DNA from: Escherichia coli
Lineage (GTDB): Bacteria > Pseudomonadota > Gammaproteobacteria > Enterobacterales > Enterobacteriaceae
Assembly: GCF_013122565.1 (NCBI RefSeq)
Contig: NZ_CP053258.1
Length of the DNA stretch: 64,000 bases
Strand: one strand, 5' to 3'
Part shown: positions 9,144-60,055 of the stretch, in pieces
How positions within the stretch are numbered: position 1 is the stretch's first letter
Layout of the letters: the number at the start of each line of letters is the position of its first letter
Notes under the pieces: generated by a model
Database searches by the model: none
Seen by the model: the letters and a program-made list of their open reading frames with translations, nothing else
What the model was told of the DNA's origin: nothing
Translations under genes and position numbers: made by a program

Positions 9144-9149
9144 ATAATG

Positions 9150-9176
9150 CGGGCCGACATTTCTCGTCGGCCCGCA
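9150..9176. terminator. Hairpin between convergent pdeF and ppx (probable bidirectional terminator)
   Basis: gcgggccgacatttctcgtcggcccgc, a 9-bp GC-rich stem, in the 38-bp convergent gap. Confidence 0.55.
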
Positions 9177-16967: not shown

Positions 16968-17016
16968 TGTACCGACCGGGCAGTGTTGCTGCCCGGTTCA
17001 AACATCATGGGATTCT

Positions 17017-37025: not shown

Positions 37026-38060
37026 ATGGCTTACTCTGTTCAAAAGTCGCGCCTGGCAAAGGTTGCGGGTGTTTCGCTTGTTTTATTGCTCGCTGCCTGT
37101 AGTTCTGACTCACGCTATAAGCGTCAGGTCAGTGGTGATGAAGCCTACCTGGAAGCGGCACCGCTTGCGGAGCTTCATGCCCCGGCTGGAATGATTTTGC
37201 CGGTGACCTCCGGTGATTATGCAATCCCGGTGACCAACGGTAGTGGTGCTGTCGGTAAGGCGCTGGACATTCGTCCACCAGCCCAGCCGCTGGCACTGGT
37301 TTCTGGCGCGCGTACCCAGTTCACGGGCGATACCGCTTCATTGCTGGTGGAAAATGGTCGTGGCAATACTCTGTGGCCGCAGGTGGTTAGCGTGCTGCAG
37401 GCGAAAAACTACACCATCACCCAACGTGATGATGCTGGTCAGACACTGACCACCGATTGGGTACAATGGAACCGTCTGGACGAAGACGAGCAGTATCGTG
37501 GTCGTTATCAAATCTCTGTTAAGCCGCAGGGTTATCAGCAGGCGGTTACGGTTAAACTGCTGAACCTGGAACAGGCGGGCAAACCGGTTGCAGACGCGGC
37601 TTCCATGCAGCGTTACAGCACGGAGATGATGAACGTTATTTCCGCCGGTCTGGATAAATCTGCCACTGACGCCGCGAACGCTGCGCAAAATCGTGCCTCC
37701 ACCACTATGGACGTACAAAGTGCAGCTGATGACACCGGTTTACCAATGCTGGTCGTACGCGGGCCGTTCAATGTGGTTTGGCAACGTCTGCCAGCGGCGC
37801 TGGAAAAAGTGGGCATGAAAGTGACCGACAGCACCCGTTCGCAGGGCAACATGGCCGTAACTTATAAGCCGCTGTCTGACAGCGACTGGCAGGAACTGGG
37901 CGCGAGCGATCCAGGCCTGGCATCCGGTGACTATAAACTGCAGGTTGGCGATTTAGATAACCGCAGCAGCCTACAGTTCATCGATCCGAAAGGTCATACT
38001 CTGACTCAGAGTCAGAACGACGCGCTGGTATCTGTCTTCCAGGCTGCGTTTAGCAAGTAA
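37026..38060 (+). CDS. bamC: Outer-membrane protein assembly factor BamC (lipoprotein)
   Basis: [27 protein letters not shown]... with lipobox LAAC; 344 aa; 16 bp after dapA (dapA-bamC operon). Confidence 0.94.
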
Positions 38061-38103
38061 AAATACAGGGCTGGAATCATCCGGCCCTTTTTTCTGATAT
38101 GAT

Positions 38104-38119
38104 ACGCAAACGTGTGCGT
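38104..38119 (+). promoter_or_regulatory. PurR operator upstream of purC
   Basis: acgcaaacgtgtgcgt matches the PurR box ACGCAAACGTTTGCGT at 15/16. Confidence 0.7.
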
Positions 38120-38165
38120 CGGCAGGAAAACGCGATTTTAGCGGTAATTCGCACGAAATTTGTTT

Positions 38166-38220
<55 letters not shown>

Positions 38221-38272
38221 ACCAGACAGCAAGAGATTTTAAAACGTTAATTCACACCCAGGAGTGATAAAG

Positions 38273-38986
38273 ATGCAAAAGCAAGCTGAGTTGTATCGTG
38301 GTAAAGCGAAAACCGTATACAGCACGGAAAACCCGGACCTGTTGGTGCTCGAATTCCGCAATGATACGTCAGCAGGGGATGGCGCGCGCATTGAGCAGTT
38401 TGATCGCAAAGGTATGGTGAACAACAAGTTCAACTACTTCATTATGAGCAAACTGGCTGAAGCGGGTATCCCGACTCAAATGGAGCGTCTGCTCTCCGAT
38501 ACCGAATGTCTGGTGAAAAAGCTGGATATGGTACCGGTTGAGTGTGTCGTGCGTAACCGTGCTGCGGGCTCTCTGGTGAAACGTCTTGGAATCGAAGAAG
38601 GTATTGAGCTGAACCCGCCGCTGTTCGATCTGTTTCTGAAAAACGACGCCATGCACGATCCGATGGTCAACGAATCTTACTGCGAAACCTTTGGCTGGGT
38701 AAGCAAAGAGAACCTGGCGCGTATGAAAGAGCTGACCTACAAAGCGAATGACGTGCTGAAAAAACTGTTCGATGATGCTGGTCTGATTCTGGTCGACTTC
38801 AAGCTGGAATTTGGTCTGTACAAAGGCGAAGTGGTACTGGGTGATGAGTTCTCCCCGGACGGTAGCCGCCTGTGGGACAAAGAAACGCTGGAGAAAATGG
38901 ACAAAGACCGTTTCCGCCAGAGCCTCGGTGGCCTGATCGAAGCCTATGAAGCCGTCGCCCGCCGCCTGGGTGTACAGCTGGACTGA
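38273..38986 (+). CDS. purC: SAICAR synthetase
   Basis: ORF trimmed to [28 protein letters not shown]... (237 aa); AGGAG RBS. Confidence 0.95.
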
Positions 38987-39153
38987 TTTTTCTGTTCATC
39001 ATCTTGCCGTGCAGCTGGCACGGCAAGACAACCGCTCTCGGAAGATGTGCATTGAACGCTCATTCCTCCGCCATTTCATCCCGCTTTCCTGTGGTAATCT
39101 TCCTCTGAACCACCTACGATCATTTCTATAATGAATATATTGTTGAGGTATCT

Positions 39154-40017
39154 ATGCGTTGGCAAGGGCGACGTGAAAGTGACAATGTTGAAGACAGGCG
39201 CAACAGCTCTGGTGGTCCGTCTATGGGCGGTCCCGGTTTTCGCCTGCCGAGCGGTAAAGGCGGGCTGATTTTACTGATAGTCGTGCTGGTTGCAGGCTAC
39301 TATGGCGTTGATTTAACCGGGTTGATGACCGGACAGCCGGTTTCCCAACAGCAATCAACGCGGTCAATTAGCCCAAATGAAGACGAAGCTGCAAAATTCA
39401 CCTCGGTGATTCTGGCAACCACGGAAGACACCTGGGGACAACAGTTCGAAAAGATGGGTAAGACCTATCAGCAACCGAAGCTGGTCATGTACCGTGGAAT
39501 GACGCGCACCGGATGCGGGGCGGGCCAGTCCATTATGGGGCCGTTCTATTGCCCGGCGGATGGCACGGTTTATATCGATCTCTCCTTCTATGATGACATG
39601 AAAGACAAACTTGGCGCGGATGGCGATTTTGCCCAGGGGTACGTTATCGCCCATGAGGTCGGTCATCATGTGCAGAAACTGTTAGGCATCGAGCCGAAAG
39701 TTCGTCAACTGCAACAAAACGCGACGCAGGCGGAAGTAAACCGCTTATCTGTGCGTATGGAACTCCAGGCCGACTGTTTTGCCGGTGTCTGGGGGCATAG
39801 TATGCAGCAGCAAGGCGTTCTGGAAACCGGCGATCTGGAAGAGGCGCTGAACGCGGCGCAGGCCATCGGCGATGACCGTTTACAACAGCAAAGTCAGGGG
39901 CGAGTAGTACCAGACAGTTTCACTCATGGCACTTCTCAGCAACGCTACAGCTGGTTTAAACGTGGTTTCGACAGCGGCGATCCGGCACAATGCAATACTT
40001 TTGGTAAAAGCATTTAA
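39154..40017 (+). CDS. ypfJ: Putative zinc metallopeptidase YpfJ (N-terminal membrane anchor, HExxH)
   Basis: 287 aa; Gly-rich N-terminus then TM helix ([15 protein letters not shown]); HEVGHH zinc-binding motif; function not established. Confidence 0.85.
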
Positions 40018-59765: not shown

Positions 59766-60055
59766 TTCTTTTTTAACTCTCACGCTTACCCTGAATATTC
59801 AGGGTAAGCGGTTTAGCTGCAATATATTAGTAAAGCTTATTACTGAGTTTACGAATAATAAAAAAAGCAATATAAAATATCTCGATATTATTTTATTTAT
59901 ATTCATGCGTCGCATATGAAAGTTTATTCATAACAGTAAATATCTCTCCATTCTTAGTGATCTACCTCACCTTTTAAACGTGCTTGCCGAATTTTGTTAT
60001 TTACTCTGACGAAAAATTGTCACGATACACGAAAGTTTTTCACAGGCGGCGACTC

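Follow-up and report, generated by a model that had tools for sequence, protein, structure and literature searches.

The purC gene of Escherichia coli ends in a stem-loop, at positions 39002–39028 (+ strand) of the 64,000-nucleotide stretch of DNA analysed here (hereafter the window), which very probably defines the 3′ end of the purC mRNA and blocks exonucleases there. This much is common to three readings of the locus, namely Rho-dependent termination, weak intrinsic termination and a barrier to processing, which are compatible with one another and not mutually exclusive. We consider it probable that the hairpin protects the mature mRNA 3′ end after Rho-dependent termination farther downstream, with partial read-through into ypfJ; its proposed role as a protective 3′ stem-loop rests on its fold energy, its uniqueness and the conservation of its stem.

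According to the open reading frame (ORF) list and to RefSeq-annotated E. coli genomes with identical DNA, the + strand carries all genes of the locus, in the order dapA, bamC, purC, ypfJ, tmcA. The purC coding sequence (SAICAR synthetase) occupies 38273–38986, with its TGA stop at 38984–38986, and ypfJ starts with an ATG at 39154; a 61-amino-acid ORF in the list (38946–39131), which overlaps the end of purC, was treated as a chance ORF. Between the purC stop and the hairpin lies the U-rich spacer tttttctgttcatca (38987–39001, + strand), which stays single-stranded when the mature 3′ untranslated region (UTR) is folded and is 15 nt long, one fewer than the 16 bp given in a first-pass annotation of the sequence. 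The perfect 11-bp inverted repeat with a 5-nt loop described in that annotation was borne out by direct reading: the 5′ arm tcttgccgtgc (39002–39012) and the 3′ arm gcacggcaaga (39018–39028) enclose the loop agctg (39013–39017), and seven of the 11 pairs are G–C.

RNA folding, which had been suggested as a check, yielded free energies of −19.5 and −18.9 kcal/mol for the + and − strands, respectively (z = −5.9 and −5.3), and none of 200 dinucleotide shuffles was equally stable. Placed in a 77-nt context, the hairpin was still both the minimum free energy (MFE) and the centroid structure; an outer helix predicted in the same context falls past the mapped 3′ end and is disrupted in K-12 by SNPs at positions 39044 and 39047. 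With up to three mismatches allowed, the hairpin pattern occurs a single time in the window (0 expected), which also contains five loci where a stem of 11 bp or more pairs perfectly around a loop of 3–10 nt, against ~0.1 expected per dinucleotide shuffle. As a GC-rich stem-loop the structure has the dimensions of an intrinsic terminator (~5–14 bp, short loop). Hairpin-driven release by E. coli RNA polymerase needs a U-rich hybrid. The sequence following the purC stem, CAACCGCU, holds 2 U in 8 nt, whereas an intrinsic terminator is required to have a U-rich stretch of ~7–8 nt directly 3′ of its stem, with at least 5–6 U, and there is no A-tract in the sequence upstream of the hairpin. Likewise, no T-run follows on either strand, as had been stated from the outset: the next 8 nt read caaccgct, with 2 T, on the + strand and tgatgaac on the − strand. 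A terminator scan called the bamC terminator at 38067–38088 and made no call at the purC hairpin, and the initial judgement that the hairpin is not a canonical intrinsic terminator agrees with both this result and the U-poor tail. The terminator predictor finds nothing after purC because the hairpin there is a 3′-end stem-loop without a U-tract. A role as an RNase III site was rejected, since such a site needs a double-stranded RNA of at least ~20 bp and the stem has only 11 bp.

Three further elements were observed upstream of purC. A near-perfect 16-bp palindrome, acgcaaacgtgtgcgt, lies at 38104–38119 and resembles the PurR operator (PUR box). A REP-like palindrome is found at 38176–38220, in the 5′ leader or upstream region of purC, and has a sub-threshold match to Rfam naRNA4 (CssrE; 30.9 bits, E = 0.003). 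Farther upstream, 7 nt after the bamC stop, a canonical intrinsic terminator at 38067–38088 consists of a 9-bp stem followed by TTTTTTCTGAT; it is the dapA-bamC terminator of the SMRT-Cappable-seq report, where its read-through was condition-dependent (40% in M9 and 11% in rich medium).

The 3′ end of the purC transcript has been mapped in E. coli K-12. Among the 3′ termini tabulated by Bar et al. in the TRS study (Nat Commun 2023, PMC10687069) is one for purC, classed as ‘Primary’, with a peak at 2596855–2596863 and a dominant position at 2596858 (Supplementary Data 3, 2 and 4), and a second TRS table gives 2596859. Anchored on the low end of the K-12 purC coding sequence (2596905, equal to window position 38986), the peak converts to 39028–39036 (+ strand), which we take as the steady-state purC mRNA 3′ terminus, and the terminus itself to ~39033, 5 nt beyond the last paired base; the K-12 sequence is the same as that of the window across the hairpin and the following 5 nt. 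The TRS listing for purC further reports a fold of −20.1 kcal/mol, a maximum U-tract of 2 and a fold sequence ending in ...GGCACGGCAAGACAACCG (PMC10687069), and this fold is the hairpin of 39002–39028. These calls derive from RNAtag-seq, and one of them reached significance in just two of three libraries; purC is not among the entries in a portion of the Term-seq tables of Adams et al. 2021. In Supplementary Data 3 of PMC10687069 the column ‘Fold seq’ seems to span −50 to +1 and the column ‘U-tract seq’ −10 to +20 around the terminus, as inferred from canonical terminators in that table, thrC and satP among them, and in agreement with coordinate arithmetic; the legend instead gives −40 to +10 for the fold and −20 to +10 for the U-tract. 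In the published K-12 data, a steady-state 3′ end is therefore found right after a stable stem-loop at purC, at the very place where an absence of 3′ ends had been named as grounds for giving up the first-pass reading.

In the mechanism that we propose, RNA polymerase would transcribe through the purC hairpin, where release of the transcript would be inefficient because there is no U-tract. The untranslated C-rich, G-poor RNA of ~39050–39137 would then load Rho, which would terminate transcription diffusely before ypfJ or within its start, and a fraction of the polymerases would continue into ypfJ. PNPase and RNase II, moving 3′ to 5′, would trim the resulting heterogeneous tails as far as the 11-bp GC-rich stem, which would halt the enzymes, and the outcome would be a precise, stable end ~5 nt past the stem and a purC mRNA shielded from decay. 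We infer that Rho, and not weak intrinsic termination, makes the primary purC ends and that exonucleases trim the purC 3′ tails. SMRT-Cappable-seq described a ‘dapA-ypfJ operon’ consisting of primary transcripts that cross the purC hairpin, which is thus not an efficient terminator.

The same full-length transcripts argue against the mapped 3′ end being the true termination point, as it would be if the hairpin were a weak non-canonical intrinsic terminator that releases some RNA polymerase at about +5 to +8 nt, maybe with the aid of NusA or NusG. Such a terminator would likewise produce an end 5 nt past the stem, and the stability of the purC stem equals that of canonical terminators; the tail, however, has only two U in 8 nt, and an upstream A-tract is missing. 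The purC ends of Cedecea, Shimwellia, Siccibacter and other genera are canonical, so that the Escherichia end may be a decayed, partly active version of them, and mixed or transitional cases of this kind were explicitly envisaged by Dar & Sorek (PMC6061677). Taken on its own, we regard weak intrinsic termination at purC as unlikely.

Directly downstream of the stem, C is enriched over G on the purC-sense strand, and a C-rich, G-poor, rut-like tract extends over 39050–39137 (+ strand), as judged by C/G ratio, C>G bubble and YC dimers. The C/G ratio reaches 3.0–3.2 in 78-nt windows starting at ~39050–39060, which corresponds to the 99.9th percentile of + strand windows in the 64 kb. The C>G bubble, defined according to Nadiras et al. 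2018, comprises 110 positions (window centres 39019–39128), with an area of 1403 %×bp and a maximum %C−%G of 24, and six YC dimers spaced by 9–13 nt, (YC)N9–13 ×6, are located at 39064–39126. Every template tested by Nadiras et al. 2018 that had a bubble of >78 bp or an area of >700 %×bp showed Rho-dependent termination in vitro, and C>G bubbles are common genome-wide. By its base composition, the tract that follows the purC hairpin carries the signature of a Rho-utilisation site and is regarded here as a putative one. A Rho-dependent termination signal had been among the functions first offered for the palindrome; the part that stands is the Rho-entry-like C-rich tract 3′ of the hairpin, and the hairpin itself is, on the best-supported reading, not the signal.

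The 3′ half of the rut-like tract is overlapped by the block tggtaatcttcctctgaaccacctacgatcatttcTATAATgaatatattgttgaggt (39095–39153) upstream of ypfJ. Conservation of this block extends across E. coli and E. albertii and in part to Pseudescherichia, and it is probably the ypfJ promoter and RBS. A TATAAT at 39124–39129 (+ strand), 95 nt from the end of the purC hairpin and invariant in E. coli and E. albertii, is on sequence grounds the likely −10 element of ypfJ’s own promoter and the likely downstream limit of the purC 3′ region; a promoter scan did not call it, owing to its weak −35. Because the conserved C-rich tract overlaps the ypfJ promoter region, promoter function may explain its conservation.

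Both this −10 element, which is well conserved and belongs to ypfJ itself, and the very strong C>G tract, which resembles a Rho entry site, sit poorly with the hairpin being purely a barrier to processing. On that reading purC would be co-transcribed with ypfJ(-tmcA), independently of Rho and with no dedicated purC terminator, and its 3′ end would come from endonucleolytic cleavage of the spacer followed by exonuclease trimming. The ‘dapA-ypfJ operon’ reads of SMRT-Cappable-seq are compatible with such co-transcription, as is the one-strand order purC-ypfJ-tmcA of E. albertii, Escherichia sp. ESNIH1 and Pseudescherichia vulneris, the close relatives that were inspected, and an AU-rich, single-stranded spacer beside the hairpin is available for cleavage. 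Against an endonucleolytic origin, only 2–5% of the 3′ termini in the TRS data overlap with a known site of either RNase E or RNase III (PMC10687069). We judge processing of this kind to be quite improbable as the sole source of the end. The RNase processing site suggested in the first-pass annotation survives, on the best-supported reading, as an exonuclease barrier that defines the mature 3′ end, and not as an endonuclease site.

To assess copy number and conservation of the proposed protective stem-loop, blastn searches (query, hairpin with 5-nt flanks; word size 11) were run against complete E. coli genomes. The hairpin was found in exactly one place per genome in 3,805 of 5,426 genomes, with an identical sequence in 2,067 of these, one mismatch in 1,656 and two mismatches in 82; neither a second genomic copy nor a plasmid copy was found among the 5,426 genomes searched. 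The search for other copies of the palindrome called for at first thus ended with one per genome, besides its uniqueness in the window. An Rfam search of 38000–39400 at a permissive E-value gave no family at the hairpin. A REP/BIME element was accordingly rejected, given the single copy per genome and the lack of an Rfam naRNA4 match at the hairpin, and the same two results uphold the earlier remark that the repeat is not REP-like. Variants were examined in 13 sequences sampled across the blastn identity range together with E. albertii: they comprised loop changes (39013 A>T and 39014 G>A), flank changes and, in E. albertii, a top pair changed from C–G to U–G, and none of the sampled sequences had a broken stem. 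A lack of conservation in relatives, the other observation that had been set out as counting against the palindrome, is not what is seen, since E. coli and E. albertii both retain the stem. In the 13 sampled sequences, 1 of 22 stem positions was polymorphic versus ~23 of 145 other intergenic positions, a difference whose direction is consistent with constraint and which alone is not significant (p about 0.2 by estimate).

Strong hairpins 2–60 nt after the stop, typically of −14 to −35 kcal/mol in Enterobacterales, were found in nearly all of the 79 species that have a PurC orthologue. The arms are unrelated in sequence between genera: tcttgccgtgc in Escherichia (window allele), tgagccgg.. in Citrobacter, gccaaaggatg in Enterobacter and cagagggtgc in Pseudocitrobacter. 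MAFFT did not bring the arms into register in an alignment of the purC 3′ regions of Escherichia, Pseudescherichia and Citrobacter, and the support drawn from the series is positional conservation with turnover of sequence and not column-wise covariation, for which a hand alignment of hairpins each picked by its own fold would be circular. Hairpins at the same place with unrelated arm sequences argue for selection on RNA structure and not on a protein-binding sequence. Canonical purC ends with a U-tract were found in Cedecea, Shimwellia, Siccibacter, ‘Klebsiella sp. BIGb0407’ and Brenneria, and ends without one in Escherichia, Citrobacter, Pseudocitrobacter and Kluyvera. The downstream C/G ratio had a median of 1.70 at U-poor ends versus 1.06 at U-rich ends (Mann–Whitney p = 0.006, uncorrected for phylogeny and base composition). 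What emerges is a comparative series in which the hairpin is nearly always present, the U-tract is variable and the C>G tract tends to be stronger where the U-tract is missing, and this series fits the suggestion of Dar & Sorek that small shifts in U content may switch gene ends between the intrinsic and the Rho-dependent mode.

Within E. coli, the purC-ypfJ spacer also exists in a second form. A vapB-vapC type II toxin–antitoxin module occupies it in 1,612 of the 5,426 complete genomes (~30%), where ~66 bp (window 38998–39062, hairpin included) are swapped for ~820 bp (L001 1679–2500). This vapBC allele has an 11-bp hairpin of its own, tttagccggag-ggta-ctccggctaaa (−16.7 kcal/mol), ~20 nt after the purC stop (L001 1688–1713). 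The same 5′ arm occurs in Pseudescherichia vulneris and Escherichia sp. ESNIH1, both of which are without vapBC. There is no obvious target-site duplication at the vapBC junctions.

That the palindrome acts as DNA, either as a transcription-factor operator or as a cruciform or recombination target tied to the vapBC insertion polymorphism, is very unlikely: it is perfect except at its centre and belongs to the ~66 bp that are replaced in the vapBC allele, but the 5,426 genomes hold no second copy, hairpins of different sequence stand at the same position in other genera and in the vapBC allele, no target-site duplication was seen at the vapBC junctions and no promoter adjoins the hairpin. An operator was specifically rejected because Citrobacter, Enterobacter, Pseudescherichia and the E. 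coli vapBC allele all have arms of unrelated sequence and because the promoter is distant. The protein-binding palindrome proposed in the first-pass annotation is disfavoured on the same grounds, with a sequence unconserved between genera and ~95 nt separating it from the likely ypfJ −10.

A more far-reaching idea is that the purC end acts as a tunable valve, in which the hairpin and the rut tract set a condition-dependent read-through into ypfJ-tmcA and which has repeatedly flipped between intrinsic and Rho modes; it would include the hairpin swap within E. coli alongside the vapBC insertion. We find this doubtful. If it were true, the end of purC, a PurR-regulated purine gene, would be a clean natural system for terminator-mode switching. 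As it stands, the hairpin is already known both in kind and in instance, its 3′ end and fold being tabulated in a published supplement, and the result has little import beyond annotation, where it places the correct 3′ limit of the purC transcription unit at ~39033.

Protective 3′ stem-loops on Rho-dependent transcripts were reportedly hypothesized by Peters et al. in 2012. According to Dar & Sorek (NAR 2018, PMC6061677), Rho-dependent E. coli transcripts have their steady-state 3′ ends directly after stem-loops whose folding energies cannot be told apart from those of terminator hairpins; these ends are without a U-tract and without an upstream A-tract, are followed by C>G enrichment and arise through trimming of diffuse Rho-terminated tails by PNPase and RNase II. 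Like the members of this class, the purC stem-loop is GC-rich, stable, of terminator size and free of both a U-tract and an upstream A-tract, and it stands just after a stop codon, with a precise 3′ end a few nucleotides past the stem and C>G enrichment next. No structural difference separates the purC end from the class, although Rho dependence and exonuclease trimming are what we infer for it. In REP elements, which mark 24% of Rho-dependent transcript 3′ ends (PMC6061677), and in BIMEs, the purC hairpin has a counterpart among 3′ mRNA stabilisers: all are extragenic palindromes, and REP/BIMEs block 3′ exonucleases. In contrast to them, the purC hairpin is single-copy and has no REP consensus, no Rfam naRNA4 match and no REP mismatch pattern.

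The geometry, energy and position after a stop codon of the purC hairpin are also those of canonical intrinsic terminators, such as the bamC terminator 900 bp upstream, and orthologues of the purC end in some other Enterobacterales are canonical intrinsic terminators; unlike these, the purC hairpin has neither a U-tract (2/8) nor an A-tract, and transcripts read through it. Elsewhere in the window, perfect 9–12-bp hairpins without a T-run were observed a few nucleotides after stop codons at 9148–9176 (between convergent ORFs), 16975–16997 and 59783–59810, and these likely belong to the same class of 3′ stem-loops lacking a U-tract. The presence of further such hairpins after stops makes the purC hairpin an ordinary member of its kind, as the literature predicts. 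Every sequence-level feature of the class described by Dar & Sorek is found at the purC end, which serves as a textbook-style illustration of their model.
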